Shown: piece by piece, positions 1,247-57,384 of the stretch
How positions within the stretch are numbered: the first letter of the stretch is position 1
Layout of the letters: every line of letters starts with the position of its first letter
NCBI GenBank assembly: GCA_002424045.1
Contig: DIPH01000001.1
Location: 13,484-77,483 of the forward strand
Origin: Firmicutes bacterium UBA5493
GTDB lineage: Bacteria > Bacillota > Limnochordia > Darwinibacteriales > Darwinibacteriaceae
DNA: 64,000 nucleotides
Direction of reading: 5' to 3'
Program-made: the position numbers and the translations under genes
The notes under the pieces: model-generated
Database searches by the model: none
The model's input: only the letters and a program-made list of their open reading frames with translations
Told to the model about the DNA's origin: nothing

Positions 1247-1250
1247 ATCC

Positions 1251-1640
1251 CTACCCCCTTCTCTGTTTGTCCTTAGGTACGACACATACACCTTTAGCTG
1301 TGGCCACCACAACTGGTTCCTCCAGAACATCCATGGCCGAAGGCCCCAGGTCTGATGAATTGGTCCTTGTGATCTGTTTGACGGCTTGAAACTTCATCTT
1401 CCGCGATGTATTACCTACCTCAGTAATCTCACCCACCGCTTCAAGGAAATCACCAGCATAAACAGGAGCCTTAAACTGCACATCACTATAGGTTAGAAAT
1501 AAACCTTCATCACCGTCATGACGGATCAAAAGCTCCGTGGCACAGTCACCAAAGAGCTGCAAAACAAAAGCACCGTCCACCAACTCACCTCCGTAGTGGG
1601 CCTGGGCTGCGCTGACTCGTACACGGATCACACTCTTCAT
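1251..1640 (-). CDS. kal: 3-aminobutyryl-CoA ammonia-lyase (small hotdog-fold protein)
   Basis: About 130 aa ORF between kamE and kce. Size and position match Kal of lysine fermentation clusters. ATG 1640 has a GGAGG RBS at about 10 nt spacing. The stop lies 4 nt before the kce start. Confidence 0.68.
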
Positions 1641-1675
1641 ACAACACATTCCTCCTTGGATTAATAAACTCTATG

Positions 1676-2416
1676 TTAGATTCTTCTGGCCAATTCCTTA
1701 ACCACAAAGGTGCTGACATGGCGGGCTGTTGTTCCAGGTCCAAACCCTGCGTCAAAACCAAGCTCCTTAGCTAGGGGCTGATCGATTCTAGGTCCACCCA
1801 CAATCATGATCAGCCTCTCACGCAGGCCCTCCGCTTCCGCCATTTCAATCAATTCCGTTAGGTTCTGAATATGTACATTTTTCTGGGTCACAACCTGAGA
1901 GACCAAGACCGCATCGGCCTTCACTTCCATAGCCTTTTGAAGAAGGATGTCGTTGGGAACTTGACTCCCTAAATTGTAAGTTTCGATCATGGGGTAGCGC
2001 TCTAAGCCGTAATCGCCATCATAGCCCTTCATGTTCATGATGGCATCGAGTCCCACTGTATGGGCATCTGTTCCGGTGCAGGCCCCCACCACTACGACCT
2101 TACGTCTGATTTCCTTTTCAATGAAGGAATTCACTTCATCGAATGTCATTGCCTCATCCCCCGCATCAACAACGGAGATTTCATCAAGATTAACACTGTG
2201 ACGGCTACTTCCATAGAGGATAAAGTGGCTGAAACCGTGGAGGTCCTTCATGTTCACCACCTGAATACCCTCGAAACCCATTTGCAAAGCCAGGCGTTTG
2301 GCTGCTTCAAGAGCCAGGGGCCCTGCAGGTATGGGTAATGTAAAACTCAACTGCACCTGTCCATCACCCCAGGAATCTCCATAGGGTTTTACTACCTTGT
2401 CTTTCGAGCTCACCAT
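1676..2416 (-). CDS. kamE: lysine 5,6-aminomutase beta subunit (B12-binding, PLP)
   Basis: 246 aa. Conserved VKPYGD N-terminal motif and a Rossmann-like B12-binding C-terminus (VVVGACTGTDAHTVG). Overlaps the kamD stop by 7 nt, suggesting translational coupling. Confidence 0.85.
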   Translation of the reverse strand: MVSSKDKVVKPYGDSWGDGQVQLSFTLPIPAGPLALEAAKRLALQMGFEGIQVVNMKDLHGFSHFILYGSSRHSVNLDEISVVDAGDEAMTFDEVNSFIEKEIRRKVVVVGACTGTDAHTVGLDAIMNMKGYDGDYGLERYPMIETYNLGSQVPNDILLQKAMEVKADAVLVSQVVTQKNVHIQNLTELIEMAEAEGLRERLIMIVGGPRIDQPLAKELGFDAGFGPGTTARHVSTFVVKELARRI

Positions 2417-3999
2417 GATCTCCCCTTCCCTGGTGCAGATTGGATCCCCAGTTCCTGCTGCATCCTGTCCATAAAGGGATTGCTATAGTCAATTCCCTTC
2501 GGGATCACACCATCACCACCTTTGCCTCCCTCTTGGGGTCGCCTGATGTTGGCAAAATGCCCTTCGCTGATGGCCCGTTTTAATCCCTTGGCTTCGATGT
2601 CCTGCAAGAAGTCTACCACTTGATCCAAGATGGCCTCTGAACGTTTTTGGATGATGCCATCGGGCCTAAAGCTAATCTCGTTTTCTAAGTCTCTGGCATT
2701 GTCCATGACATACTGGGCGCTTTCCAGGCTCAAAGCACGGTCACTTAGGTGGGGTGTATGAATGGCTTCGGTGAGCATGCCAAGGAGATGAATGCTTTGG
2801 CCCGTCATAACCGAGGCCAGGTTAAACATGGCATTTTGAACATGGCCCATAAAAATGTCTCCCGTCATGTACTTGGTAGGCGGCATATACTTCAAGGGTG
2901 CGTCAGGGAAAATCTGCCGAATGGTCTGGGCTGTAGCTAGCTCATAGAGGAACCCGTTTTTCATCTTCGGATCGAGCTCAAAGGCGTGTCCCAAACCCAG
3001 CTGCCAACTTTGTAGACCTGCCGCCAGACCCATCTGTTCATTGATAAAATTGGAGGCCAAAACGGTATGGGCCTCCTCTAAGGCGTCTGCTGTTGTTAAG
3101 TAGTTGTCCTCTCCCGTATTGATAATAATGCCGGCGTAGGCATTGATCATCCGAGAAAAGTATTGGTCAGCAAAGGTCCGCTCCATATTGATATCCCGGA
3201 ACAAGATCCCATACATGGCGTCATTTAGCATCATGTCAAGACGTTCCAAGGCTCCCATGGCAGCGATCTCGGGCATGCACAGCCCTGAGCAATAGTTGAC
3301 GAGCTGAATGTACCGTCCCACCTCTTCGCTCACCTCATCAAGAGCTTGCCTCATTACCCTGAAGTTGGCTTGGGTAGCGTATGTGCCCCCAAAACCTTCC
3401 GTGGTGGTTCCGTAGGGAACATAATCGAGTAAACTCTGGGCTGTGGTGCGAATGACTGCAATAATGTCTGCCCCCTGCCTAGCAGCTGACTTGGCCTGCT
3501 CCACATCGGCAAAGATGTTACCGCTGGCCACGATGACATACTTCAAAGGCTCTTCGCCTAACCCGAGACTCTGCTTTAAGGTCTCCCGTTTCTGCCGCTC
3601 TTTGGCGATGGTGGTAAGTGCTTGATCCGTATATGTATTCATGACTCTGGCTATACGATTTGGGTCTTGGGCCGAGAGCTCACAGATGTGCAAATCCCGA
3701 GCACAGTGTTGAGCGATCTCTTGTGGGGACTTGTCGAGGACCACCACGGCATTAGCTATCCAATACGCTATGCCCCGGTCTAAAAAACCTGCCCGATTCA
3801 CTTGATCCACAACAACATTGGCCAGAGGGATGTCTTCGTGATTCGTGCCATCGATGCCAAAAAGGCGTGCCACGGTACGTTCCACGCTTACTGTGGTGTG
3901 ACGATAGATATCTTCCTGCACCTTTTGAGCAATGGCCTGAGCTAATTGCCTGGCCTTTTGAACTTTTTCGTTGTCCAATACTAGTAACTGGTTACCCAT
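2410..3999 (-). CDS. kamD: lysine 5,6-aminomutase alpha subunit
   Basis: About 530 aa TIM-barrel-type aminomutase large subunit. The N-terminus (LDNEKVQKARQLAQAIAQKVQEDIYRHTTVSVERTVARLFGIDG) matches the KamD pattern. The ORF-track start at 4020 is TTG. I prefer ATG 3999, which has an AAAAGAGGGA RBS. Confidence 0.85.
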   Translation of the reverse strand: MGNQLLVLDNEKVQKARQLAQAIAQKVQEDIYRHTTVSVERTVARLFGIDGTNHEDIPLANVVVDQVNRAGFLDRGIAYWIANAVVVLDKSPQEIAQHCARDLHICELSAQDPNRIARVMNTYTDQALTTIAKERQKRETLKQSLGLGEEPLKYVIVASGNIFADVEQAKSAARQGADIIAVIRTTAQSLLDYVPYGTTTEGFGGTYATQANFRVMRQALDEVSEEVGRYIQLVNYCSGLCMPEIAAMGALERLDMMLNDAMYGILFRDINMERTFADQYFSRMINAYAGIIINTGEDNYLTTADALEEAHTVLASNFINEQMGLAAGLQSWQLGLGHAFELDPKMKNGFLYELATAQTIRQIFPDAPLKYMPPTKYMTGDIFMGHVQNAMFNLASVMTGQSIHLLGMLTEAIHTPHLSDRALSLESAQYVMDNARDLENEISFRPDGIIQKRSEAILDQVVDFLQDIEAKGLKRAISEGHFANIRRPQEGGKGGDGVIPKGIDYSNPFMDRMQQELGIQSAPGKGRSW

Positions 4000-5608
4000 T
4001 CTTGCGGTCCCTCTTTTCAAGGAGCTCTTTAGCCCTCTTAATGATCATGCTGTCCAGCCCTAGAGCTTCTGCCACAACTGCGGCATCGCTCCGAAGTGGT
4101 CGCCCAGGGCTTGCCACCTCCAAGCTATAGTCCATACAGCGTTGAAGAGAATCTACCCGGGCCTCGCCTAGCTTGTCTTGATCCAACCCCCTGACCCGAA
4201 GATGGCGGATCTCCTCTAGCTGGGCTAGAGATGGGTAATGGGTCGTAATCACGGTAATGGTCGGCGTGTGGTTGAGATGCTCAAGAATTGCCTGGGCAAC
4301 GCTGGCCCCTTCCACAGGATTTGTTCCGTGGGCAATCTCATCCACGAGAATCAAGCCATCATGGTCGCTTTCCTCTATGACATCCCGCAGAAAGAGCACT
4401 TCCCCAGCAAAGGCACTGAGGCCCTTGGGGATTTCCGATGCCGCCAAGTGAGCCCGGATAAACTTCCGTGGCCGGAAATCCATGGAACGGGCAGGCACCA
4501 AAAGGCCATATTGGGCCATAGCCGTTAAAAGGCCAATAGTCTTTAAACTCGCGGTTTTACCACCCATATTAGGTCCGGTGATCAGGGTGACCCCTGAGGA
4601 AACTTCTAAGCAGAGGGGAGTATAATCATGACCCCCTTGGGTCACCTCTTCCTCCACCAAGGGATGTCTTCCCTCTGTGATGCGAATGATGGAATCCTCG
4701 CACAACTGGGGTTTCATTCCATCTATCTCAACGGCAAACTTCGCTTTGGCTAATAAGACGTCTAAAAAAGCTAGCCTTTCCAGAACGCCATGTAGTCGCG
4801 GCCCATAATCTGCTATCACAGAGGTGAGTTTGACCCTAATCCCGTGCTTGTGTTTCTCCTCTTCTTCCCTAACCTGAGCCAACTCCTGCCTGACTTGGCG
4901 CATGATCCCGTCCTCCACCAGCTGGAAGCGGATAAAATCTGAGGTTTCCTGCACTTTCTCCAACTGGACCATGCTTTCAAGCTGGGAGATCATCTTGCCA
5001 TCTGTGGTAGTAACCGTAATGTCTCCATTCATGGATAAGATGCGCCCCACGACCTGAATCATTTCACAGTCCACTGACGCCCGAAAGTCGGCTAGGGTAT
5101 TCTCTAGACGTACACGCTCTTGGCGCACCTTAGCGAGCTCATCGTCGTAGGTGTCAGCGATATAAAAGCTGTCGTGCCCACCTTGGCCAAGACTTAAGGA
5201 TTCCTTGCATTCCACGCACTGATCCACAGGATCTGGTAAGAAGCTTGTCCACCCTAAGTGTTCCAATTCCGCCTGGATTTTCTCCACAATAGTTAACAGC
5301 TTCTTTACCTCATAGAACTCCGTATCATCTAAGGTGATCCCTTGCATACTGCGCCTAAGGCTGCCACCGATATCCCGAACTGTACTTAACAGAAAGCTTA
5401 GCTCTTCCGCCATCTTGGGGTCTCTCTTTAGGTACGCACACATGCGCTCGAGGCGATCGAGTTCCTGCACGAGATCGGCCGATTGCTCTTGCCCAAAAGC
5501 TGTGGCTTTACGCAACCTGGATCGCCCCAAAGACGATACGGGGCTTATGCGAGACCACACTTCATCAAAACCTAATTGACGCCGAGTTTCAGCATCAAGA
5601 AATTGCAT
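3992..5608 (-). CDS. MutS-domain-V ATPase (MutS2-like, no mismatch-binding domain) embedded in the aminomutase operon
   Basis: 538 aa. Classic MutS Walker A ITGPNMGGKTASLKTIGLLTAMAQYGLLVPA. ATG 5608 with an AGGAGGG RBS. Overlaps the kamD start by 8 nt and the upstream gene by 14 nt, so it is operonic. Confidence 0.75.
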   Translation of the reverse strand: MQFLDAETRRQLGFDEVWSRISPVSSLGRSRLRKATAFGQEQSADLVQELDRLERMCAYLKRDPKMAEELSFLLSTVRDIGGSLRRSMQGITLDDTEFYEVKKLLTIVEKIQAELEHLGWTSFLPDPVDQCVECKESLSLGQGGHDSFYIADTYDDELAKVRQERVRLENTLADFRASVDCEMIQVVGRILSMNGDITVTTTDGKMISQLESMVQLEKVQETSDFIRFQLVEDGIMRQVRQELAQVREEEEKHKHGIRVKLTSVIADYGPRLHGVLERLAFLDVLLAKAKFAVEIDGMKPQLCEDSIIRITEGRHPLVEEEVTQGGHDYTPLCLEVSSGVTLITGPNMGGKTASLKTIGLLTAMAQYGLLVPARSMDFRPRKFIRAHLAASEIPKGLSAFAGEVLFLRDVIEESDHDGLILVDEIAHGTNPVEGASVAQAILEHLNHTPTITVITTHYPSLAQLEEIRHLRVRGLDQDKLGEARVDSLQRCMDYSLEVASPGRPLRSDAAVVAEALGLDSMIIKRAKELLEKRDRKNG

Positions 5609-6674
5609 TAAAACCCTCCTTTTTGAGCCTGTATCGGATTCCCAAATTCAAGTCAAAGGCAGGAATGGGCTCCACAGCTTGTCCCACATCCTCAAGTAAG
5701 CGAATAGGGTCTGCCAGGCCGTAACTACTGTTGAAAGGATTCACCGTCACAGCGCTAATATGGATGGAATCTAGCACCTTTAGCACAGCATGATGGGACT
5801 TCAACTTTTGGAAGCTCTGTTTGCCCAAAAAGACGCTGGTAGGATCAGAAGCAAGCAGGATTGGAAAGGTAGACTCTGCCCCACTGGCTAGAATCTTAAC
5901 CAACACGTCATCAGTGAGCATACCCCGAATGAAAATTGCCTGCGTACATCGATCGATCTGTGCGGTCAAGACGTCGGGGCGATGGAAAAAATCCTCTTGG
6001 GTAACGATACCTTGTATACCTTGAGCCGTGAGCAACACGATCTTGACCTCTCGGCCCATACCTTCCAACTCCAATTTCAATTCTGGGTCATCCCCGTGAT
6101 CCCAGGATGGGAGGGTCAAGATCCCCAATTGGAGCTTCAGTTTCTCAAGCAAGAGCTTGCGATCCCAAGCAGCTTCAGCGCCCACTGCTAGCACTGTAGT
6201 ATCGGTAACCATGGGTGCCGCGAGGGAACGGCGATCAATAGCGCCGTCCACAAAAAGCAAGTCCACTCCAAACTGTTCTAACTGAATCTTGATCAAAGCC
6301 AATTCATGACGGGTGCTAGGACCCGCCAACAATGTCTTGCCTGCACTAAGCACCCGGGCCAGGATTACTTCCCCTAAGGGAGTCGTGATGCCGGTCGTGG
6401 CCAATATTTCATAGTCCAAGCCGCTTTCCACAATCAGTGACCTGGCATTGGCCACGATCTGTCCTGGACTAAGCATGATCTTAGGTTTGTCGTGTTCAAA
6501 GAGACTATCCCGCTCTTCACCATCGAGGCCGATGGTCGTAAGGGCCACCCGGAGGCCTAACTGTCTAGCCTCCGTTACGAGCTGATTAAATGTAAAGGTC
6601 TTACCTGTATTCTTACCCATTCCAATCACAGAGACAGATCGGAAGCCCAGGTCCAGTATATCTTCTACAAACAC
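5595..6674 (-). CDS. P-loop NTP-binding protein, DTBS/CobQ/CbiA-like fold (hypothetical)
   Basis: N-terminal SVSVIGMGKNTGKTFTFNQL Walker-A-like loop. I chose GTG 6674, 35 nt after the kdd stop, with a GAGGAAGGGG RBS. The ORF-track start at 6782 would overlap kdd by 74 nt. Family assignment is from motif recognition only. Confidence 0.55.
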   Translation of the reverse strand: MFVEDILDLGFRSVSVIGMGKNTGKTFTFNQLVTEARQLGLRVALTTIGLDGEERDSLFEHDKPKIMLSPGQIVANARSLIVESGLDYEILATTGITTPLGEVILARVLSAGKTLLAGPSTRHELALIKIQLEQFGVDLLFVDGAIDRRSLAAPMVTDTTVLAVGAEAAWDRKLLLEKLKLQLGILTLPSWDHGDDPELKLELEGMGREVKIVLLTAQGIQGIVTQEDFFHRPDVLTAQIDRCTQAIFIRGMLTDDVLVKILASGAESTFPILLASDPTSVFLGKQSFQKLKSHHAVLKVLDSIHISAVTVNPFNSSYGLADPIRLLEDVGQAVEPIPAFDLNLGIRYRLKKEGFNAIS

Positions 6675-6708
6675 CAGTACCAACGCCCCTTCCTCACCAA
6701 CCGTCCTC

Positions 6709-7752
6709 TTACACGTAGATTTCCGAGAATAACTGGCGTAGTTTGGGGTTCTCCCGCAAAACCTCGAGAGTAATAGCTGCATGACTCTTTGTATAGCCGT
6801 TACCGATCAGCATATTGACATCTTTGCCCACCCCTTCAGCACCAAGGGCTGCCGAGGTGAAACTTGTGGCCATGCTGAAGAAATATACCGTTCCCCCATC
6901 ACGGGTACACAGAATCGAGGTCATTTCTGTTTGGGGAATATTCACGCAGTTGATCGTAAGATCGGCAAGCCTGTCCCCACTCGCCTTCTGGAAAGCATGC
7001 AAGCAGTCCACAGGCTTTGTTGCATCCACATCCAGGACCACATCTGCCAGATCGAGCTTCTGGATACGCTGTACCGCCCCATCGCCATAATCCATGGCAA
7101 TGATCTTACCTGAGACACCGGCACGTTTTTTCGCTTCATGGAGGCACAGGCTCCCTGACTTTCCACCTGCTCCCACAATCAAGACTGTATCACCTGGTTT
7201 CACGAGTTTAGCTGTTTGGGCGGGAGCTCCAGCGACGTCCAGGGCAGCCAAAGCTAACTTCTGGGGAAGGTCGTCAGGCAATACTGCATAAATGCCGCTC
7301 TCAAAGAGAATAGCCTGTCCCTTAATATCCACCTGTGCGGTGTCTAAATGAATTTTCTCTATGGTCTCAATGACCAGTGGTGTTAAGGTCAAAGAGACCA
7401 GAGAGGCAATGCGGGATCCTACCTGCAAATCTCGCTTGGCCTCAAGATCACGGCCAATGGCCTTAACGATGCCGATGAACATGCCCCCGGATCCAGTCAC
7501 AGGATTATGGTGTTTTCCCCTGCGGTCAACAATATCAAGCATAATTTGGGCGATCTGGGCTTCATCATCACCGGCTTCTTGCCGAATTTGGGTGAAACTC
7601 GCAGAATCAATATTCAGAGTTTCAACATCGATCAGAATTTCGTTGGGCATAATCTCCATACGGTTATCGAGGCGTTCGGACCCTTGAGGCAGGGCTCCCA
7701 CCGGTGTGATGACCCTATGGGTACCAAATGGACAAGCTACAGTCACAGACAT
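6709..7752 (-). CDS. kdd: L-erythro-3,5-diaminohexanoate dehydrogenase
   Basis: 347 aa NAD(P)-dependent dehydrogenase with a Rossmann motif (LIVGAGGKSGSLCLHEAK). Size and context match Kdd. It is the first gene of the lysine operon in this window. Confidence 0.8.
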   Translation of the reverse strand: MSVTVACPFGTHRVITPVGALPQGSERLDNRMEIMPNEILIDVETLNIDSASFTQIRQEAGDDEAQIAQIMLDIVDRRGKHHNPVTGSGGMFIGIVKAIGRDLEAKRDLQVGSRIASLVSLTLTPLVIETIEKIHLDTAQVDIKGQAILFESGIYAVLPDDLPQKLALAALDVAGAPAQTAKLVKPGDTVLIVGAGGKSGSLCLHEAKKRAGVSGKIIAMDYGDGAVQRIQKLDLADVVLDVDATKPVDCLHAFQKASGDRLADLTINCVNIPQTEMTSILCTRDGGTVYFFSMATSFTSAALGAEGVGKDVNMLIGNGYTKSHAAITLEVLRENPKLRQLFSEIYV

Positions 7753-20053: not shown

Positions 20054-20117
20054 GAAAAGGGTTGCCACTCCCCATGTCGTATAAGTACCTATGATGATTG
20101 TAATGGGGGGAGTATTG

Positions 20118-21506
20118 ATGTCAAACCTATTTCGCCATATACCGGCTGTTGATAAAATCTTAATGGATCCCGAAATCACTGAAGCATCCCGCGGGATACC
20201 AAGCCTCGAGGTGACGTCAGTTGTCCGGCAATTTCTTGATGAGCTGCGCGGGGAAATTGCCGTCCAAAAAGTGGCCTGTACGAAAGAAGAGATTATCGCT
20301 CGGTTAGTCCTAGAACTAAAAGCAACAAAAAGACGAAAGTTTCAGCCCGTAGTTAACGCAACGGGTGTACTCTTACATACAAATCTAGGACGAGCTCCCC
20401 TTCCAGAGCTAGCCATAGAGCGTCTGCAATCCCTTGGCCAAGGCTATTTCAACTTGGAGCTGGATTTAAACACCGGAGAGAGGGGAAGCCGCTATGCAAG
20501 TGTCTCCAGGCTCTTCAACCTCTTGCTTGCGGGAGAGCAAGGGCAGGTAGAGAAAAGCACTAACAGCACATGTGACACCGTGGTGGTCAATAATAACGCT
20601 GGTGCTGTCTTAGTTGCCCTAAAAGCCCTAACCGCGGGCCAAGAAGTTATTGTCTCCAGAGGGCAATTGGTGGAAATTGGTGGAGGATTTCGTGTACCCG
20701 AAGTCATGGCCACAAGTGGCTGCCACCTCAAGGAAGTGGGCACAACCAACCGCACTCGCCTCAGTGATTATGCAGGCGCTGTTACAGAGCAAACCAAAGC
20801 CATTCTCCTGGTGCACCCTAGTAATTATTCCATGATTGGCTTTACGGAAAGTGTTCCTAGGGATAAACTCGCCCAGCTCGCGGGCGAGCGCGGACTTCTC
20901 TTGATTGAAGACATCGGTAGCGGCGCCTTCCATCCCTTTGAGGAGCCCCTTGTCTCTAGTGCACTAAGACATAGCCATATTGTAACCTATAGTGGTGACA
21001 AGCTTTTTGGAGGACCCCAGGCCGGCATCATTAGTGGCCGCAAGGATCTCGTGGACATCATCAAGAAAGATCCTCTCCTTAGGGCACTGCGCATTGATAA
21101 GCTGTCTCTAATTGCCCTAGAAGCAGTGTTAGAACTGCATTTGGGAAAAGCGTATAACAAGCTTCCCCTCTGGGCCTTGGCAAGTGTTGATCCAGAAGAA
21201 ATTAGACTGCGGGCAGAGACATGGCAAAGCCATGTGGGACCAGGGCTTAAAGGAGAGGTCGTACAGGCCGAGTCCACCATGGGCGGGGGCTCTTTGCCAG
21301 GGGAAACTATCTCGTCCTGGGCCTTAGCACTGCAAAGTTCAAAGCTTTCCAGTGCGGAGCTGGCAGAGTGGCTACGCCGAAACGATCCTCCCGTCATGGG
21401 CAGAATTGTGCAAGACCGGGTGTTACTCGATCCTAGGACCGTCTTACCTTCCCAGGACCAACTGATCACGTCTCTACTCCAAGGTGGTGTGGCATCATGT
21501 TCATAA
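20118..21506 (+). CDS. selA: L-seryl-tRNA(Sec) selenium transferase
   Basis: PLP-lysine motif YSGDKLFGGPQAGII. ATG 20118 with a GGGGGGAG RBS. Overlaps selB by 10 nt. Confidence 0.88.
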   Translation: MSNLFRHIPAVDKILMDPEITEASRGIPSLEVTSVVRQFLDELRGEIAVQKVACTKEEIIARLVLELKATKRRKFQPVVNATGVLLHTNLGRAPLPELAIERLQSLGQGYFNLELDLNTGERGSRYASVSRLFNLLLAGEQGQVEKSTNSTCDTVVVNNNAGAVLVALKALTAGQEVIVSRGQLVEIGGGFRVPEVMATSGCHLKEVGTTNRTRLSDYAGAVTEQTKAILLVHPSNYSMIGFTESVPRDKLAQLAGERGLLLIEDIGSGAFHPFEEPLVSSALRHSHIVTYSGDKLFGGPQAGIISGRKDLVDIIKKDPLLRALRIDKLSLIALEAVLELHLGKAYNKLPLWALASVDPEEIRLRAETWQSHVGPGLKGEVVQAESTMGGGSLPGETISSWALALQSSKLSSAELAEWLRRNDPPVMGRIVQDRVLLDPRTVLPSQDQLITSLLQGGVASCS

Positions 21507-23383
21507 TGGGTACCGCAGGTCACATCGACCATGGAAAATCAACGCTGATTACGGCCTTAACCGGGATGAATCCCGACCGTCTGCAGGAGGAACAAGCCCG
21601 AGGTATGACAGTGGATTTAGGCTTCGCCTGGTTCTCCGTTCCCCTGGGTAACGTTGGCGTTGTGGACGTTCCAGGACACCAACGCTTAGTAAAAAACATG
21701 CTGGCCGGGGTAGGTCAGGTGGATTTTATCCTTTTGGTTATCGCTGCCGATGACGGTTGGATGCCGCAAACGCAGGAACACGTAGAAATTCTGGACCTCT
21801 ATGGAATGAAGCGGGGTATTGTCGCTCTCACCAAGGCGGATCTGGTAGAACCTGAATGGTTGGAACTCGTGGAAGCAGACATTCGCGAACACCTGGCCGA
21901 GACGTCCCTTGCGGACTTTCCCATCATCCCAGTTTCGGCCATCTCCGGTTATAATGTGGATATTCTCAAAGAAGCCATCAATGAACTCGTGGTTTCATTT
22001 CCCCATGCTCAGGGAGAAGATAATCCCATCCTTTGGATCGATCGAGTCTTTACGATTAAGGGGGCTGGAACTGTAGTGACAGGTACGTTAATGGGTGGTT
22101 CACTCCATGTGGGGATGGACGTCGTGGTAGAACCCCCAGGTCATGAGGCCCGTATTCGCACCTTGCAAACACAGACCAAGACGGTGGAAACAGGAGTAGC
22201 CCATTCGCGCCTGGCGGTAAATCTCACAGGAGTAGAAAAAGCAAGCCTAACCCGGGGAATGTACCTGGCCCTTCCCAAGCGTCGCCCCTATTTTTCCTTA
22301 ATCAACACCCACGTGCGTGTGCTAACCCAAGCGCCGTCGACCCTCGAAACCGGTCAACAGGTCAAACTTTACGTGGGGACCCTGGAGACTCTGGCCAGTG
22401 TAAAAATTCTAGGCGCCGAAGAGCTTGAACCCGGTCAAGAAGGCTTTGTTCAATTGGAGCTTGAGACCCCAGCCCACTTCAGTTTTAAAGACCGCTTTAT
22501 CCTTCGTCACAGTGAACTCCAAGATACACTAGGTGGAGGTTGTTTTATTGAAGAAGGCGTCCCTGTACGGGGCGTAAACTTGCGTATGGTAGGGCCGAAG
22601 CGCCTTCGGCACCTTTTTCCTTTTGAAAAGCCAGAAGCACATCTCGATCTAGATATGCTAAAGGCTAAATACGAAAGTGGCCCCGAGGAGCTCAGTTTGC
22701 TCAAAGCCCGAGATCGCACCTATTGGACAAAGAGTCAGTTTCAAGAGCAGGGGCTGATTGCCCATCCCAAGTTGCATGTGCTCGGAGACTACATTTTGGC
22801 ACCGGAGCAATATGATAAGGTCCAGGAGTATCTGCGTTCTACAGTGGAACACTTCCACCATACGAATCCCTTGGCACCAGGACCAAGCAAAGAGACCCTC
22901 CGGGCGGGCACTGGCCTTCCCTCAAGACTCTTTGACCAGATTCTAAACCAAACTGACGATCTGAAAGAAGTACGGGGTTCCATTAGCAGTGTTAAACATC
23001 AGGTCACCCTTTCAGACCAGGAAGAGCAAAAACTAAGGAAAATTCAGGAAGTAATGGGCAAGACTCCCTATGAGCCCCTCACTCTTGGCGCTCTAGAAGA
23101 ACTCGGTTTTCCAAGCGAACTGCTCTTTGCAGGGAGCCACTTAGGACGCTTGGTAGCCCTGTCGGGTGAGCACTGGACAACCCCAGAAATTGTGGGCGGC
23201 ATTTTGAATGTCATATTTCAAGAAGAAGCCTTTATGGAAGGCTTCGAGCTCAGCACGTTTCGAGATCGCTTAGGAACGAGCCGCAAGTTCGCCTTAGCCT
23301 TCTTGGAATATTTTGATGCTCAGGGAATCACAAAACGAAAAGGGGACGTTCGCACACTTGGCAAACGTCCCGAAAAAGCGTAA
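21497..23383 (+). CDS. selB: selenocysteine-specific translation elongation factor
   Basis: N-terminal GTPase GTAGHIDHGKSTL...DVPGH...TKAD, then winged-helix C-terminal domains. 628 aa. Confidence 0.9.
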   Translation: MFIMGTAGHIDHGKSTLITALTGMNPDRLQEEQARGMTVDLGFAWFSVPLGNVGVVDVPGHQRLVKNMLAGVGQVDFILLVIAADDGWMPQTQEHVEILDLYGMKRGIVALTKADLVEPEWLELVEADIREHLAETSLADFPIIPVSAISGYNVDILKEAINELVVSFPHAQGEDNPILWIDRVFTIKGAGTVVTGTLMGGSLHVGMDVVVEPPGHEARIRTLQTQTKTVETGVAHSRLAVNLTGVEKASLTRGMYLALPKRRPYFSLINTHVRVLTQAPSTLETGQQVKLYVGTLETLASVKILGAEELEPGQEGFVQLELETPAHFSFKDRFILRHSELQDTLGGGCFIEEGVPVRGVNLRMVGPKRLRHLFPFEKPEAHLDLDMLKAKYESGPEELSLLKARDRTYWTKSQFQEQGLIAHPKLHVLGDYILAPEQYDKVQEYLRSTVEHFHHTNPLAPGPSKETLRAGTGLPSRLFDQILNQTDDLKEVRGSISSVKHQVTLSDQEEQKLRKIQEVMGKTPYEPLTLGALEELGFPSELLFAGSHLGRLVALSGEHWTTPEIVGGILNVIFQEEAFMEGFELSTFRDRLGTSRKFALAFLEYFDAQGITKRKGDVRTLGKRPEKA

Positions 23384-23483
23384 TGGCGGGAGAATATGGG
23401 AATCGAACCCACCGAGGATAACCCTTGTTACCCCCCTGACAGGTTTGAAGCCTGCGGAGCCCACCAGGAACTCAGATCCTCCC
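23384..23483 (-). tRNA. selC: tRNA-Sec (anticodon UCA), selC
   Basis: 100 nt. 8-bp acceptor stem (GGGAGGAU / AUUCUCCC, one G.U), anticodon loop CUUCAAA, long variable arm, T-arm GGTTCGATTCC, encoded CCA. The 3' end abuts the selB stop codon on the opposite strand. Confidence 0.85.
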
Positions 23484-36062: not shown

Positions 36063-37319
36063 CTACTCTCTAACAAGCATTAGGACCTGACGGAGCGTAA
36101 GACGCTTCCCGTACATCAAAATTCCAATGCGATAAATCTTCCCGGATATCCAGGCACCAACGAGCACAGAGACCAGCAAAACGAGTACGGAGGCAATGAC
36201 CTCCATTAGTGACGGACTTCCCAACACAATGCGGGAAAACATGACCATAGGTGATGTGAATGGAATCAGAGATGTGGCTACGGCAAATCCGCTATTGGGA
36301 TTCAGGAATGAAATGTAGGCACCAAAAAAGCCGACCATAATCAACATCATGATAATGGTAACAACCTGGCTGACTTCTTCCACTCGCGACACAAGGGCTC
36401 CCGCGGCTGCGAAAATTGAGGCATAGAGAAAATAGCCCAAGACAAAGTAGAGACCAAACCACAATACGGTGTCGAGGGGAATTGTGCTGAGGGGCTCACT
36501 GATCCCAAGCATCATCCCTAAGGCACCAGAGCTACCCATGGTGTTCATAAGCAGACCGGTGCCAATCCAGATGAAGAATTGCAAAAGGCCCAAAGAACCT
36601 ACACCTATAATCTTTCCCAACATCAATTCCAGTGGTTTCACTGTGGAAACCATCACTTCCATAATGCGTGAACTTTTCTCTTCTGCCACGCCAGAGGCCA
36701 CCATATTACCGTACATAATCAGGGCCATGTAAATCATAAACAGCAAGAAGTAGGCCAATACCATGGCCTGGGCATGAGCAGCACTGTCCACCTCTTCCCC
36801 GTCCTCACCTAAGGGAGACACCTCCCGGATTCGGAAATCAGCCGGGCTAAAAAGGCTCGACACATCTTCCGCGGACAGTCCCAAACGCACAGCATTGTGG
36901 CGGCTGACCGCTAAATTAAGGATATTTTCAATTTCATCATTTAACATCATGTTGCTCGCATCAGCTGTGACGAGAGTGTATAGAGGACCATCTACAAGCA
37001 AGAGACCCGATAATCCTTCATCAAGAACCATACGATATGCTTCCCGCTCGTCGAGATCACTTCCTGAGCGCACCGTGAAGCCGTCCCTTTCCACACTCAC
37101 CTGCTGTAAAAAGGGAAATATACTGCTTTTTCCAGGCTGTTCATAGACCACGAGATCAATCTGTCCTGGAGTAATGCTAGCAGAAAAGCGTTCGATCAAG
37201 GGGGGCAGAAACGACAAGCCCACAAAAACCAGTACACCGAGTATTGTTGTAATAATATAGGCGGTTCCCTTAACCCTGGAGGTAAACTCGCGTTTCACCA
37301 AGACAGGTATCATGCTCAC
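36063..37319 (-). CDS. ABC-2 type exporter permease (NatB-like)
   Basis: 418 aa. N-terminal TM, a large extracytoplasmic loop, and 5 C-terminal TM helices. Overlaps the upstream ATPase by 4 nt. Confidence 0.7.
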   Translation of the reverse strand: MSMIPVLVKREFTSRVKGTAYIITTILGVLVFVGLSFLPPLIERFSASITPGQIDLVVYEQPGKSSIFPFLQQVSVERDGFTVRSGSDLDEREAYRMVLDEGLSGLLLVDGPLYTLVTADASNMMLNDEIENILNLAVSRHNAVRLGLSAEDVSSLFSPADFRIREVSPLGEDGEEVDSAAHAQAMVLAYFLLFMIYMALIMYGNMVASGVAEEKSSRIMEVMVSTVKPLELMLGKIIGVGSLGLLQFFIWIGTGLLMNTMGSSGALGMMLGISEPLSTIPLDTVLWFGLYFVLGYFLYASIFAAAGALVSRVEEVSQVVTIIMMLIMVGFFGAYISFLNPNSGFAVATSLIPFTSPMVMFSRIVLGSPSLMEVIASVLVLLVSVLVGAWISGKIYRIGILMYGKRLTLRQVLMLVRE

Positions 37320-38212
37320 GCCCCCACACCTACCTTCTCCACAAAGATCTGATCAAGGGATGGTTCTACTAATTCAAAGCGAAGCACTTGCCCCGCCTGC
37401 ATAGCTTCCCTCAGTACGTAATTAGGATCAACGCCCTCTCCTAAGCGAAACTCTTGGAAATCCGCACGGGAGGTCAAAAGCTCCATCCCCGGTATCTTAT
37501 ACCAGAAATCTTCGTTACCTTCCAGAGAAATCCTCAGGATCTGTCTGCCCATGGATCTTTTGATCTGTCTCAGGTTACCGTGCAAAACCAGGCGCCCCCG
37601 ATCGATCAAGACAATATCCTCGCAAATCTCTTCCACTTGATCCATGCGATGGCTGGAGAAAATGATGGTTTTCCCCCTCTTATGGGATTCCAACAAAACC
37701 TCTTTGAGCAGTGCGGTATTCACTGGGTCTAAACCACTAAAGGGCTCGTCTAAGACCAGTAATTCAGGGTCGTGGAGCATGGTTCCGATGGTCTGAACTT
37801 TCTGTTGGTTGCCTTTAGACAGCTCTTCAATGCGTTTGTGGCGTAGTTCACCTAGATCAAAGCGATCGATCCAGCGTTCGGTCTCTATCTGGGCCTTGCG
37901 CTTGTCCAGTCCATGAATGCGTCCTAGAAACTCTAGATGCTCTGCCACTCGCATCTTAGGATAGAGTCCCCGTTCTTCCGGCAAGTAACCAAAGAAACCG
38001 CGACCTAATCGGCGGAAGGGCGTACCGTTCCAGGTCACTTGCCCTTCGTCGGGTCTAATAATGCCCAACACCACACGCATAGTCGTTGTCTTTCCCGCAC
38101 CATTGGGCCCCAAAAAGCCAAAGAGGGATCCCCCTTGCACAGAGAAAGTCAAATTGTCCACCGCGGTGACATCCCGAAAACGCTTAGTAATCTCTGCTGC
38201 AATCAATGACAT
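37316..38212 (-). CDS. ABC transporter ATP-binding protein (NatA-like)
   Basis: Walker A GPNGAGKTT, signature LSKGNQQK, Walker B LLVLDEPFSGLDP. Confidence 0.85.
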   Translation of the reverse strand: MSLIAAEITKRFRDVTAVDNLTFSVQGGSLFGFLGPNGAGKTTTMRVVLGIIRPDEGQVTWNGTPFRRLGRGFFGYLPEERGLYPKMRVAEHLEFLGRIHGLDKRKAQIETERWIDRFDLGELRHKRIEELSKGNQQKVQTIGTMLHDPELLVLDEPFSGLDPVNTALLKEVLLESHKRGKTIIFSSHRMDQVEEICEDIVLIDRGRLVLHGNLRQIKRSMGRQILRISLEGNEDFWYKIPGMELLTSRADFQEFRLGEGVDPNYVLREAMQAGQVLRFELVEPSLDQIFVEKVGVGA

Positions 38213-38223
38213 AGCCTTCCCTC

Positions 38224-38643
38224 CTAGGAACAAGCTCGGGCAACAATTCGAAAATCCGCTTCATGATCATAGAAACGACGGGTAATCTTTCTGGCCACAA
38301 TGGCACCTAACAAAAGGCCTGCCACTGCACCGAGCCCCGCCTGGGGATCACTTCCCGTAATCAAACGAGTTACAAGATAACCAATAAAGAGGGATATGAA
38401 GGGGACGCCGTATAACACTGCGATTGCCTTAATTAGGGGACCAATTTCGCCATCCAGAATGACTTCATCCCCTACCTCATACTGATTGCGGGTGTCACGT
38501 GTCCGCACAATATAATCCTCGGGTGGTCTGTCTGGTGTGAGCCGAATGCACCCCTTACAGTTACCACAGGTACGGGCCGGATCTTGGATTTCGACCACCA
38601 CTTCTTTATCGGTCTTCTCAATAACAACTCCCCTACGACGCAT
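38224..38643 (-). CDS. RseC/MucC (SoxR-reducing system) family membrane protein
   Basis: About 140 aa. Cys cluster CGNCKGC and two C-terminal TM helices. ATG 38643 with an AGGAGG RBS. Confidence 0.62.
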   Translation of the reverse strand: MRRRGVVIEKTDKEVVVEIQDPARTCGNCKGCIRLTPDRPPEDYIVRTRDTRNQYEVGDEVILDGEIGPLIKAIAVLYGVPFISLFIGYLVTRLITGSDPQAGLGAVAGLLLGAIVARKITRRFYDHEADFRIVARACS

Positions 38644-38717
38644 GGGAATCCTCCTTTCTCCAGATAAGAAAAAGCCCTTGCTAAAATCGAGAAACACTTG
38701 TATAATTAGTATTGCTT

Positions 38718-40520: not shown

Positions 40521-40733
40521 TTACGTTTGATCCAAATTGGTGAGTTGTTCCCAGAAAATGTCCAGCTCACATGTTTCTTCCTCGCCTTGCCAGTGTAGGC
40601 AGCTCTCACAACTTCGTTCTGCATCCCCATCTTCTGCATCATAGGCACTACACGTTTGTCCAACATGACGCATTTCCATTAAACTCGGCACAGGCAACAG
40701 CTCCTCTTGCTCCTTTTTAGCTAGTATGACCAT
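40521..40733 (-). CDS. questionable small acidic Cys-containing ORF (70 aa); may instead mark a non-coding transcript
   Basis: ORF-track entry. Flanked by a hairpin plus T-run downstream on the minus strand (40476-40515, then TTTTT) and by the FMN-protein terminator upstream. No RBS at any in-frame start. Confidence 0.2.
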   Translation of the reverse strand: MVILAKKEQEELLPVPSLMEMRHVGQTCSAYDAEDGDAERSCESCLHWQGEEETCELDIFWEQLTNLDQT

Positions 40734-40751
40734 TGGCCGAAAAAGTATGAA

Positions 40752-40778
40752 AGGGTCTCCCTAGGGAGACCCTTCTCA
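40752..40778 (-). terminator. rho-independent terminator of the FMN-binding exoprotein gene
   Basis: Perfect palindrome GGGTCTCCCtagGGGAGACCC, 12 nt after the stop, followed by TTCATACTTTTT on the minus strand. Confidence 0.6.
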
Positions 40779-40790
40779 TTGTAGCGTGAC

Positions 40791-41732
40791 TTAGTTAACT
40801 GCATCTTCCACTGCAGCTAGAACCGCTTTACTGGTAACTGTAGCTCCGCTTACGGCATCTACAGGACCTTGTGCTTCGATGATGGCTGAGGGAAGTGTCT
40901 CCAAGGCGCTATTGGCAATAAAGGGGGTTTCGCTATTCTCTACAATTACGATTTCGGTGATCTTACCCCCACTGACTGTTACATCAAGGACAAGCTCTCC
41001 ACCAAAGCCTTGAGCGCTGCCGCGATGTGTACCATCGCCTACATTAATTTCAAATGCTGTACTGGTGACAGTCTCTTCCTCTTCGGCAGGTTCTTCCACA
41101 ACACCTGTACCAGTTAGCGCGTTCTCCACAGCTTCGATAAGGGCCATGCTCGTATATGTTGCGCCACTTACCACTTCAACATGGGCACTTTGGGTTTGTA
41201 CAATGGTCGCAGTCAGTTCCTCAATAGCTGCGTCAGCCACAAAGGGGGTTTCCTGGTGCGGCCTCACCGTGACATCGCTGATTTTTCCGTCACTAATGGT
41301 CACATCCACAATCAAGTCACCGCCGAAACCTTGGGCACTACCGGCATAAACTCCATCTTCATACTTTCCTTGGGCCTTCTGTAAAGCCTGTTCCACAGCT
41401 GTCAAAAGAGCTTGGCTTGTGACTGTGGCGCCGCTCACGGCTTGAACATTAATACTTTGGGATTGTACGATACTCGCTGTTAATTCCTCGATAGCTGATT
41501 CTGCAACAAAGGGTGTTTCCTGGTGCGGTCTCACCTTGACATCACTGATTTTTCCACCACTAATGGCCACATCTACGACTAAGTCACCGCCGAAACCTTT
41601 AGCCGTACCAGCATAGACGCCGTCTCTCATTACATCGGCCTGGGTCGACATAGACCAAACCACAGCGGACACTAAAAGCAAACCAATGAATAATACCAAA
41701 CTAATGTTTCTCCTCGTGCGCATTGTAAGCAC
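40791..41732 (-). CDS. secreted or anchored protein with three tandem FMN-binding (FMN_bind/NqrC-RnfG-like) domains, each carrying an SGAT flavinylation motif
   Basis: 313 aa. N-terminal signal/anchor, then three ~85 aa repeats of GFGGxLxVDVxISxGKIxDVxV...ETPF...VSGAT[VY]TS. GTG start with an AAGGGGG RBS. Confidence 0.8.
   Translation of the reverse strand: MLTMRTRRNISLVLFIGLLLVSAVVWSMSTQADVMRDGVYAGTAKGFGGDLVVDVAISGGKISDVKVRPHQETPFVAESAIEELTASIVQSQSINVQAVSGATVTSQALLTAVEQALQKAQGKYEDGVYAGSAQGFGGDLIVDVTISDGKISDVTVRPHQETPFVADAAIEELTATIVQTQSAHVEVVSGATYTSMALIEAVENALTGTGVVEEPAEEEETVTSTAFEINVGDGTHRGSAQGFGGELVLDVTVSGGKITEIVIVENSETPFIANSALETLPSAIIEAQGPVDAVSGATVTSKAVLAAVEDAVN
40900..41640. repeat. three tandem ~240-nt intragenic direct repeats encoding the FMN-binding domains
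   Basis: Coding blocks at about 41283-41362 and 41523-41600 are about 85% identical at the DNA level (period 240 nt). The third copy (about 40900-41040) is more diverged. Confidence 0.7.
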
Positions 41733-41765
41733 TAGTAAACCCCCTTATATTTCTAATGATTCTAG

Positions 41766-42896
41766 TTAGAACTCTTCGCCAGCCCGGTCAGCCCACAGTC
41801 TGATAAACTCTAGAAGCTGATCCCGAGAAGGGCTATGCATGTGGCGAACGTAAAAACCCGACGTCGCCTTGCCTACAGCCAACGATTCCTCCACGCCTAA
41901 CTGTAACATTAATCCTAGGCAAAATCCAGCATTAAAGTTGTCCCCTGCTCCGGTTGTCAGGCGCGGTTTCGATGTGAATGGACCTTCCACGTAGAAGTAC
42001 TCTCCATCCACATAAGCACCAGCTTCAAAAGTGGGGTGCACCATGACACACCACAGTCCTAAATCTGCACCCAGGGCCCTAACGATTTCCTCTAAATCTG
42101 CGTCTTCCACCGGTTTGCTGAGGGTCAAGCCCCGCACGGAGGCGATCTCTGATGCCTCTTTGCGATTAAGACCAAGGATCACCCGGTAGTAGGTAGAAAA
42201 CCGACCAATGACCTCCAGGGCCTCGCAAATGTCCCCAGGGCTGCGTTTACTCGGATCAGCCAAGTCCACGAAAAAATACGGCCGATAACCATCGGGCTGG
42301 GGACTACAAAGAGCCAGTAAGCCAGCCCAAATTTCGTTCATGTAAGGAGTCATGGTCCAATTCACCGTAGCCACCAAATCAGCTCCGCTAAAGATCCTCT
42401 TGAGCTGGTGGTTATCTACCTCTTTTTGAAGCGTTGCCCAATTCACATCGTTCAAAGACTCCATTTTTCCAAGCATCACCTTACCATCATCAAACTCTAC
42501 AGCATCAGTGTGACCCGGTTCTGCGATGGAAAAGACCTGCGTGCATCCATCTGTGAGTTCGGTAAAAACAGGATGAATATTGGGGGATCCCAGAGAACCA
42601 ACATACGATACACTGGTTCCTGCCTTCACCAAGGCATTCGCCATGATGGGCCCGTTCCCACCAAGCTTCATGGTTTTTGGAACAAACTCAATATTGGTGC
42701 TGAGACCCGCGGCCTTGGAAATACGCTCCCCAAACTGGCGTATATTCGTCATTCGTGTATATGAGTCAAAGGATTGCCTACGATCAACTACTTCTACGAT
42801 CTCATCAACAAATCCATCAAACCCGATGGCCACGGAGAATCGGGCGGGATCGAGATTTTGCATGCGCTGATATAGTTGCCTTAATTTTACTTGCAT
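41766..42896 (-). CDS. PfkB-family carbohydrate/nucleoside kinase with an N-terminal extension
   Basis: Motifs GGNGPIMANALVKAG (N-terminal GG) and TGAGDNFNAGF (the DTxGAGD anion hole). 376 aa. Confidence 0.72.
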   Translation of the reverse strand: MQVKLRQLYQRMQNLDPARFSVAIGFDGFVDEIVEVVDRRQSFDSYTRMTNIRQFGERISKAAGLSTNIEFVPKTMKLGGNGPIMANALVKAGTSVSYVGSLGSPNIHPVFTELTDGCTQVFSIAEPGHTDAVEFDDGKVMLGKMESLNDVNWATLQKEVDNHQLKRIFSGADLVATVNWTMTPYMNEIWAGLLALCSPQPDGYRPYFFVDLADPSKRSPGDICEALEVIGRFSTYYRVILGLNRKEASEIASVRGLTLSKPVEDADLEEIVRALGADLGLWCVMVHPTFEAGAYVDGEYFYVEGPFTSKPRLTTGAGDNFNAGFCLGLMLQLGVEESLAVGKATSGFYVRHMHSPSRDQLLEFIRLWADRAGEEF

Positions 42897-42981: not shown

Positions 42982-43800
42982 CTAGTTCACTAAGAAGATC
43001 ACCGCATAACGGGCAAAGAAGTCATACTGCACCATGGCCTCCAAAACCCGGCGAGTGTCTTCTTCACTAATATACACCCCGGTCTGGGCTGCATCGGCCA
43101 CCGCAAGCGCCTCCACCACCAGTGGAGCCACATAGGGATAATCAGAATCCACAGCTATACGGCTCAAAAGGTCAGAGGTTAACTCCGAACCATAGCCCAC
43201 CACTCCCTGATCCTGCACAAAATCTTGTCCCGCCAAAACGCCACCATAGAGAAGTTGACCTGATTCGCTATAAATGCGGGGGCTCATTCCCCTTCTTACC
43301 TCGAGGTGGCGGGCATCAATTACCAAACCCGTATAAAAGGTGCCTTGCGTGGCAAGCTTTTCGCTCCAATACTCATACATCTGCTGGGACGAGGCGTAGC
43401 TCCGTTCCACCTTCAGATCCTTCCAATAGTAACGTCCTTCTTTGTCAGCTGTTACCACAAGCTCAAAGCGTCCTGGGCTAGGAGTGGTGTGTACTTCGGG
43501 CACGCTCAAGGTTGTCCAACCCCCACCTCCAACTAACTCGTGTCGTGATATATGATGCTCGGTTACTTCATTATTGTTCTTGATGTGGCATAGAGTCATA
43601 GTAACGGATGCATCAGCCAAGTCGGTGCGTAAAGCCATGCTAATCACATAGCTCTTTCCTGCCTCCAAAGGCAAATCAAAGCGAAATTCCTGCCCGGCAC
43701 CGAGCATTAAGGATGTACCCATTGCCATAACACCGCCACTTTCAGTCAATAAAAGGAACAATAACATTGAACCTGTAAGAATGTGAAAGAACTTTTTCAA
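42982..43800 (-). CDS. hypothetical secreted protein
   Basis: N-terminal signal peptide MKKFFHILTGSMLLFLLL. No recognisable family. Confidence 0.55.
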   Translation of the reverse strand: MKKFFHILTGSMLLFLLLTESGGVMAMGTSLMLGAGQEFRFDLPLEAGKSYVISMALRTDLADASVTMTLCHIKNNNEVTEHHISRHELVGGGGWTTLSVPEVHTTPSPGRFELVVTADKEGRYYWKDLKVERSYASSQQMYEYWSEKLATQGTFYTGLVIDARHLEVRRGMSPRIYSESGQLLYGGVLAGQDFVQDQGVVGYGSELTSDLLSRIAVDSDYPYVAPLVVEALAVADAAQTGVYISEEDTRRVLEAMVQYDFFARYAVIFLVN

Positions 43801-57195: not shown

Positions 57196-57234
57196 CTTGG
57201 CTCCCCCTTGTCAGACCTCAACCTACACAAATCC

Positions 57235-57348
57235 AAAAGGGGCTTCTACCGGTTGGTAGAAGCCCCATCTTCGCAAAGTGGTAACACAGAGTATTGCATA
57301 GAAAACTCTTGTGCTTTGTGTAGGCGTCCTTCCCAACCTCTCTGGATT
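57235..57348 (-). promoter_or_regulatory. PyrR-type transcription attenuator in the pyrB leader (PyrR binding loop plus intrinsic terminator)
   Basis: The minus strand reads AATCCAGAGAGGTTGGGAAGG at 57328-57348, matching the UCCAGAGAGGCU binding loop. Downstream, GGGGCTTCTACCaaccGGTAGAAGCCCC followed by TTTTGG at 57235-57266 lies 40 nt before the pyrB start. Confidence 0.6.
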
Positions 57349-57384
57349 GGCTTAAAGGTCTTTTTTGTGTTTTTCTTCTAATCC

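Follow-up and report, generated by a model that had tools for sequence, protein, structure and literature searches.

We analyzed a stretch of 64,000 nucleotides from the Firmicutes bacterium UBA5493 (assembly GCA_002424045.1, contig DIPH01000001.1, positions 13,484 to 77,483 of the forward strand; hereafter the window), in which a minus-strand gene encodes a protein with an N-terminal signal/anchor and three tandem flavin mononucleotide (FMN)-binding domains of the FMN_bind family. Judged from its sequence, the protein is an ordinary member of an already described kind, the multi-flavinylated class of Meheust et al. (2021). The parts of the gene and its product are given below in window positions.

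40791..41732, minus strand: coding sequence of the putatively multi-flavinylated FMN_bind protein, 313 amino acids, GTG start and TAA stop (from the list of open reading frames)
41649..41732, minus strand: N-terminal signal/anchor, amino acids 1-28, reading MLTMRTRRN, then ISLVLFIGLLLVSAVVW, then SM
41367..41630, minus strand: FMN_bind domain 1 (A type, amino acids 35-122), with QAVSGAT and predicted acceptor Thr103 (codon 41424-41426)
41100..41363, minus strand: FMN_bind domain 2 (A' type, amino acids 124-211), with EVVSGAT and predicted acceptor Thr192 (codon 41157-41159)
41028..41099, minus strand: acidic disordered linker, amino acids 212-235 (TGTGVVEEPAEEEETVTSTAFEIN...), with predicted local distance difference test scores (pLDDT) below 50 at amino acids 211-224 of the AlphaFold2 (AF2) model
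40794..41027, minus strand: FMN_bind domain 3 (B type, amino acids 236-313), with DAVSGAT and predicted acceptor Thr298 (codon 40839-40841)

The Pfam family FMN_bind (PF04205) matched the protein in three stretches (E = 1.3e-48, 164 bits against a cut-off of 22), and SGAT occurs at amino acids 100, 189 and 295, in the contexts AVSGATVTS, VVSGATYTS and AVSGATVTS. Only one hydrophobic segment is present (amino acids 10-28, Kyte-Doolittle mean 2.5), and RTRR stands before it. The protein contains no cysteine, and the part predicted to lie outside the cytoplasm is strongly acidic, with 41 Asp and Glu residues versus 12 Lys and Arg residues. The AF2 model, computed from an alignment of 17 orthologs (mean pLDDT 76; predicted template modelling score (pTM) 0.49), comprises a helix at amino acids 4-27 and three beta3-alpha2 domains, with disorder at amino acids 22-33 and 211-224 and few inter-domain contacts. 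The N-terminal transmembrane-like helix probably targets the protein out of the cytosol, as is characteristic of the multi-flavinylated class. A twin-arginine translocation (Tat) signal was considered and rejected because the arginine pair is not conserved (RK in the ortholog P0006 and RT in P0048, a two-domain ortholog from a 2.9-Mb contig).

The closest structures known are those of purified members of the same class. Domain 1 of CbFMN4 (8p2b) was the best sequence match in the PDB, aligning with amino acids 40-120 of domain 1 (E = 5.8e-13). It was also the best fold match (template modelling (TM) score 0.88, root-mean-square deviation 1.4-1.5 Å, 41-42% identity), followed by domain 2 of SaFMN3 (8p2a; TM score 0.82). 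Three individual families were tried and rejected as the identity of the protein: PplA (NCBIfam NF041941, 16.2 bits against a cut-off of 325, and no lipobox cysteine), NqrC (TIGR01938, 16.9 bits against 144) and RnfG (TIGR01947, 79.4 bits against 102, spread over four stretches and with the canonical RnfG domain absent).

A preliminary description of this DNA, made from the sequence alone, had already recognized the open reading frame with three FMN_bind domains and an SGAT motif in each, as well as a signal/anchor with the remainder of the protein outside the cytoplasm; both observations were borne out. The domain-wise comparison with PplA, NqrC and RnfG that it proposed yielded no family assignment, all three scores lying below their cut-offs. 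It had also presented the three-domain version as something out of the ordinary, which has to be given up. The class holds 2081 extracytosolic multi-FMN_bind proteins with as many as 13 sites, found in 1530 mostly Gram-positive genomes, and has been proposed to serve longer-distance extracytosolic electron transfer (Meheust et al. 2021, eLife 10:e66878, PMC8238504). Moreover, proteins with three and four FMN sites have already been purified and crystallised.

A word-based search of 5.8 billion proteins returned 1103 relatives. The true orthologs have a common N-terminus, MLTxRTRRNxSLVLFIGLLL..VWSM, and the genome scan for orthologs used a profile made from a tight alignment of this N-terminal region. 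All orthologs come from uncultured Bacillota, mainly from metagenome-assembled genomes (MAGs) of biogas reactors, and some of them are labelled Limnochordia. Cultured Limnochordia are diderm and possess Rnf. The lineage studied here may likewise be diderm (Limnochordia-like), in which case the protein would be periplasmic and not located on a Gram-positive surface.

The anchor is conserved at least as strongly as the flavin domains. Among 17 orthologs, eight positions of amino acids 1-28 are invariant (R7, S11, L12, L14, I16, L18, W26 and S27) and three more are nearly so. In the same orthologs, G-A-T of the motif is invariant at both alignable sites and the preceding Ser is nearly invariant; SGAT makes up 65 of the 69 motif matches counted in 29 anchor-bearing orthologs. 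Conservation of the SGAT threonines in orthologs, which the preliminary description had named as a test, was thus found. Domain number is far less uniform: within the ortholog family, as delimited by the conserved anchor and synteny, it ranges from 2 to 6. The majority of orthologs have two domains (202-217 amino acids), and the remainder have three, four, five or six.

This variation extends to the species of the window itself. From Met4 onward, the protein is exactly identical to P0215 (310 amino acids; encoded on a 78-kb contig at NCBI), which was recognized among the cluster members; exact-sequence look-ups with either start codon matched no record. Another contig, L001 (ENA sample ERZ724039), matches the window at 99.95-99.96% identity across 21 kb (nine mismatches), and alignment and blastn revealed a single structural difference, namely an extra 312-bp unit in L001 that gives four domains. 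L001 has two B-type units that share a 145-nt identical core between diverged flanks, and the single B unit of the window begins like copy 1, with its 5' flank, continues through the core and finishes with the 3' flank of copy 2. The mark of an additional B unit is a second linker, GCTTTAGCAGGTGAGGTGGAGGGAGAGGCC... The core lies at the following position.

40862..41006, minus strand: 145-nt core, perfectly duplicated in the four-domain allele and holding the junction of the 312-bp gain, loss or collapse (from alignment, blastn and computation of exact runs)

The proteins of the window's species that fall into one 90%-identity cluster have 310 and 414/417 amino acids, i.e. three and four domains, and both lengths occur on both single-nucleotide polymorphism (SNP) backgrounds, V110 and A110. 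Other 90%-identity clusters contain proteins of 314/416/518 amino acids (three, four and five domains), 507/601 amino acids (five and six) and 405/500 amino acids (four and five). The varying unit is the third-domain (B) type, present in 1 to 4 copies among the orthologs.

These length differences would fit real unequal crossing-over as well as recurrent collapse in short-read assembly, and the three domains of the window may be a lower bound. If the count is an artefact, the true gene has at least four domains, and the assembler jumped across the 145-nt core with in-frame loss of the 312-bp unit. We give this explanation slightly less than an even chance. It accords with the fact that the 312-bp unit is the only structural change in 21 kb of nearly identical sequence and that its junction falls in a perfect repeat longer than common assembly k-mers. 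The extra unit of L001 has unique flanking sequence, so it is no expansion artefact, and the occurrence of three- and four-domain forms on V110 and A110 alike is the pattern expected of recurrent collapse. Furthermore, 5 of the 7 contigs of species-representative MAGs with an ortholog stop inside the B-repeat region, and in three MAGs the gene of a multi-FMN RnfG is split over two contig ends. On the other hand, the 310-amino-acid form is found in at least three separate records, including the window/P0215 and a JGI record (P0213) on another SNP background, and the stepwise series of the other species clusters include expansions. An identical core between diverged flanks is also the mosaic expected of gene conversion or unequal crossing-over, which makes real variation mechanistically plausible.

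Domain counts of multi-flavinylated proteins taken from short-read MAGs are probably systematically too low and are unreliable for MAG mining. Published flavin-site histograms may be lower bounds, because contigs break or collapse inside these genes. Among contigs of GTDB species-representative MAGs (L009-L013, L016-L019, L021 and L022), ends inside multi-FMN_bind genes were seen repeatedly, both in this family and in multi-flavinylated rnfG, and paired contig ends of one MAG look like the two halves of one gene.

The domains of the protein have different histories. At the DNA level, domain 1 matches domain 2 with 77% identity over 234 nt (direct repeat 41125-41358 / 41392-41625) and 77.7% over 238 nt. 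Between either of them and domain 3, the identity is approximately 60-62% for DNA and 50-55% for protein. Repeat arrays of two and three copies were missed by Tandem Repeats Finder and were detected by a separate direct-repeat search. Domain history was examined by pairwise identities and by a neighbour-joining tree of 63 segments of about 84 amino acids, which carries no support values. In this tree, the first- and second-domain copies form separate cross-species clades, and the domain 1/domain 2 pair shows 72-77% DNA identity in three species. For both reasons the duplication is not recent. From these comparisons, the A/A' duplication appears to be old and common to all orthologs with at least three domains. 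In contrast to the preliminary description, which had put two of the domains at about 85% DNA identity over 240 nt and concluded that they arose by a recent intragenic duplication, both the measured identity and the age of this pair are therefore different. Its further suggestion of copy-number variation is upheld insofar as length series exist within species, but the unit that varies is the third-domain type and not domains 1 and 2, and assembly collapse fits as well.

B-type copies of one species cluster together, and long stretches of them match at up to 100%, a sign of recent amplification or gene conversion. The B-type domain of the window shares 74% identity with the final domain of a three-FMN RnfG (P0097, from the rnfC-D-G-E-A cluster of locus L006) and 70% with the corresponding domain of an RnfD-G fusion found in L020, a long-read Limnochordia MAG, and just 56-61% with the C-terminal domain of those of its orthologs that have two domains. 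It also clusters with RnfG extensions in the domain tree. Taken together, these comparisons suggest cassette exchange between the B-type domain and the tail of rnfG. The fusion in L020 (JBMNKP010000001.1, 8255-11759) is an RnfD-RnfG open reading frame with at least two extra FMN_bind domains; further B-type repeats follow in another frame, past an apparent frameshift and before rnfE and rnfA, and the whole resembles a very long multi-flavinylated RnfG.

The protein could accordingly be imagined as a detached RnfG-extension module, whose conserved anchor docks by the Rnf complex and which takes electrons from the RnfG flavin and provides a side exit to extracytoplasmic acceptors. Although we regard this as unlikely, several observations speak in its favor. 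Apart from the kinship of domain 3 just described, related lineages carry these B-type domains as direct fusions at the RnfG C-terminus, and a signal peptide that is cleaved would not usually be as conserved as the flavin domains or more so. It has been proposed that multi-flavinylated RnfGs give electrons a second way out (PMC8238504). A homolog of RseC is encoded 2 kb downstream, and E. coli RseC works with the Rnf-like Rsx complex and ApbE (PMC11729352). However, no rnf gene is present in the window or in any syntenic ortholog locus, and a search with the canonical RnfG part of P0097 gave 25 matches, none attributable to genomes bearing an ortholog. The tree consists of short segments and lacks support values, and rseC is coupled to an ABC transporter, not to the FMN_bind gene.

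A bolder proposal would combine the kinship with the length series. Here the B-type domain would be a mobile recombining cassette of this protein and of the RnfG tail in Limnochordia-like Firmicutes, and copy number would be truly strain-variable (3/4, 3/4/5, 4/5 and 5/6 domains) through unequal crossing-over at identical cores of at least 145 nt. The outcome would be an Rnf-fed wire of adjustable length, which populations would tune to the thickness of the envelope or to the distance of the acceptor. As a whole, this proposal is doubtful and we judge it improbable.

On the basis of the architecture, motifs, fold, topology signals, orthology and length variation shown here, and with flavinylation, the direction of electron flow, the donor and the acceptor inferred from characterised relatives, another function is quite probable. 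In our preferred reading, the protein would be a Sec-exported, ApbE-flavinylated multi-flavin carrier that takes electrons from a membrane donor, whose gene would lie elsewhere, and hands them on to an acceptor outside the cytoplasm. The N-terminal helix, with its RTRR flank on the cytoplasmic side, would export the remainder of the protein via Sec and would probably be kept as a membrane anchor, as in RnfG and NqrC. An ApbE-type transferase encoded elsewhere would then link FMN to Thr103, Thr192 and Thr298 through phosphoester bonds. With domains 1 and 2 on a short linker and domain 3 on a disordered acidic linker of about 25 amino acids, the result would be a beads-on-a-string row of low-potential flavins, which could pass electrons from the membrane donor, not encoded beside the gene, to the acceptor outside. 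Chain length would depend on the number of copies of the distal B-type module (1 to 4 in the orthologs), a unit that would behave as a recombining cassette. The PplA-type flavin-carrier function assigned in the preliminary description is, by the same analogy, supported in kind.

Several observations weigh against the relay model. ApbE places FMN on the last Ser/Thr of D-x-x-[S/T]-G-A-[S/T], and the Asp has been called 'strictly conserved' in a review, which also reports that a D-to-A change in the motif had only a minor effect in one tested substrate (PMC12052999). In our protein, this Asp occupies the first motif position only in domain 3, the corresponding residue being Gln in domain 1 and Glu in domain 2. 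Anchor-bearing orthologs have D, E and Q in 16, 10 and 3 cases at this position of the first domain, and D and E in 33 and 7 cases in later domains. No ApbE (PF02424) was found in the 64-kb window, searched as open reading frames of at least 150 amino acids and intergenic ones of 60-150 amino acids, or in 9 kb beyond one end. Nor did the same region contain Ndh2, EetA/B, DmkA/B, Rnf/Nqr, NapH-like, PepSY-like, MsrQ-like or DsbD-like partners, which agrees with the preliminary description as to the lack of adjacent ndh2, eetAB and dmkAB genes. The gene lies behind that of a cytoplasmic sugar kinase and ahead of serine dehydratase genes, a context without redox logic. A tblastn search of the window and 22 related loci with an approximate E. 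coli ApbE query gave no match, which is a lead only, and the accessions of the relevant MAGs are absent from the supplements of Meheust et al.

The flavins might also serve a purpose other than a wire. As a scavenger or buffer outside the cytoplasm, the protein would reduce dioxygen, reactive species or Fe(III) chelates at the membrane surface of a strict anaerobe, and additional domains would add capacity, not reach. The potential reported for SaFMN3 is -184 mV; all three of its flavins have the same potential, and its fully reduced form gives electrons to dioxygen (PMC10339131). The few inter-domain contacts predicted by AF2 (pTM 0.49), as in the published beads-on-a-string models that are typical for multi-flavinylated proteins (PMC11334425), give no sign of a fixed flavin-to-flavin path. 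A donor would still be needed, however, genes for peroxidase, iron uptake or oxidative stress are not adjacent, and the sequence does not tell a scavenger apart from a relay. We consider a scavenging role decidedly improbable.

The features around the gene are as follows.

41740..41746, minus strand: Shine-Dalgarno sequence AAGGGGG, 7 nt before the GTG start (read from the sequence)
40740..40775, minus strand: intrinsic terminator-like hairpin with an 11-bp stem, 6 GC pairs and a T-rich tail, starting 16 nt past the stop codon (terminator scan and sequence)
41766..42896, minus strand: upstream gene of a PfkB-type kinase (Pfam PF25270, 'prokaryotic ketohexokinase', E = 4.4e-56)
42982..43800, minus strand: gene of a lineage-restricted secreted or anchored protein of 272 amino acids with an N-terminal beta-sandwich resembling a carbohydrate-binding module (CBM)

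An alternative in-frame ATG (41723) is located three codons after the GTG and 16 nt from AAGGGGG; the GTG at 41732 is favored because the V/MLTxRTRR N-terminus is kept in orthologous loci. The kinase stop and the start of the FMN_bind gene are separated by 33 nt, and a scan of this gap showed no promoter-like site on the strand of the gene. Given this gap and the strong hairpin after the stop codon, the FMN_bind gene is probably co-transcribed with the kinase gene and stands last in their unit. No riboswitch or other RNA element was found near the FMN_bind gene. In more distant orthologs, a gene of a pyridoxal phosphate (PLP)-dependent (PALP) enzyme stands between the two genes and overlaps the FMN_bind start.

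The neighbors named in the preliminary description, a PfkB kinase and an uncharacterized secreted protein, were recovered as such. The kinase scores 191 bits with PF25270 versus 40 bits with generic PfkB. The product of 42982-43800 has no Pfam or NCBIfam match, and its 66 homologs are all from uncultured Firmicutes/Limnochordia. It begins with a hydrophobic helix, which is followed by a CBM4/16/22-like beta-sandwich (AF2 model and Foldseek matches) and a strongly conserved C-terminal domain with the invariant pattern TGL.DAR...P...G.L.Y.G, for which no fold family was assigned. No redox features were seen in it.

Gene order is fixed among the orthologs: murB, M23 peptidase, a protein of 270 amino acids, Khk-like kinase, (PLP enzyme), FMN_bind, small Cys-rich protein, sdaAB, sdaAA, rseC and ABC transporter. 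This conserved neighborhood carries no functional weight, because housekeeping genes such as murB are equally syntenic over the region. A functional link to the neighbors was rejected on the grounds that synteny is not gene-specific and that the 272-amino-acid neighbor is CBM-like without a redox hint.

The small Cys-rich open reading frame (40521-40733, minus strand, 70 amino acids) comes directly after the terminator of the FMN_bind gene. It has a conserved core of about 56 amino acids with four Cys, 70-82% identical in every syntenic locus reaching past the FMN_bind gene, and matched no Pfam or NCBIfam family. The RseC/MucC-family membrane protein (38224-38697, minus strand) has an N-terminal CGNCKGC motif, and its gene overlaps the start of the ATPase gene of the ABC transporter (37316-38233) by 10 nt; the pairing with an ABC-2 transporter is kept across the lineage.

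Other parts of the window also deserve mention. A lysine-fermentation cluster on the minus strand (413-7752) encodes a beta-keto acid cleavage enzyme (BKACE), a 4HBT thioesterase, the beta and alpha subunits of lysine 5,6-aminomutase, a MutS-domain-V protein, the reactivase KamB and a zinc-type dehydrogenase. The genes selA, selB and tRNA-Sec are found together at 20091-23483, and therefore the organism makes selenoproteins. A PyrR-binding attenuator (57232-57362, minus strand; Rfam RF00515, 60.7 bits) precedes the operon pyrB-pyrC-pyrK-pyrD-pyrF-pyrE.

As one further uncharacterised member of a catalogued (more than 2000 proteins) and partly characterised class, the protein alone changes little. 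Three points deserve to be kept: the within-species length series, the breaks and collapses of assemblies in genes of this kind, and the relatedness of the variable cassette to the extensions of RnfG. If the length series is real, it would offer a natural experiment on chain length in extracytoplasmic electron transfer and on the tie of stand-alone carriers to Rnf.

Compared with known systems, PplA of Listeria monocytogenes shares with our protein the tandem extramembrane FMN_bind domains, flavinylation by an ApbE-type enzyme (FmnB; predicted here from the motifs) and a proposed role as a terminal flavin carrier. The PplA described by Light et al. in 2018 is said to have two domains. It is encoded in an ndh2/eetA/eetB/dmkA/dmkB/fmnA/B locus, whereas none of those families is represented in the window or in the syntenic loci of the orthologs. 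RnfG, including its multi-flavinylated forms, has in common with our protein a single N-terminal helix, the FMN_bind fold and the SGAT threonine, but it belongs to an rnf operon, whereas the neighbors here are the Khk-like kinase, the CBM-like protein, the small Cys protein and sdaAB/sdaAA.

The closest likeness is to CbFMN4 from a Clostridiaceae bacterium and SaFMN3 from Streptomyces azureus, which have an N-terminal signal/transmembrane segment and are covalently flavinylated when co-expressed with ApbE (Tong et al. 2023, PMC10339131); crystal data for their domains are available (PDB 8p2b and 8p2a). Like our protein, they consist of this segment followed by three or four tandem FMN_bind domains of about 85 amino acids with xxxGAT. 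Their genes are flanked by apbE and ours is not. Their domains are nearly alike within each protein, whereas those of our protein are of two types, A/A' and B, with approximately 50-55% identity, and two of its three domains have Q or E at the first motif position.

With the class as a whole (Meheust et al. 2021; Huang et al. 2024, mSystems), the protein shares the predicted extracytosolic location, more than one FMN_bind domain, a Firmicutes lineage, the beads-on-a-string arrangement and the proposed longer-range transfer. The locus in the window differs in that it has no co-localised transmembrane electron-transfer system, ApbE, cell-wall-binding protein or reductase. In those analyses, domain number varies between proteins, whereas in the family studied here it varies inside clusters of 90% identity.

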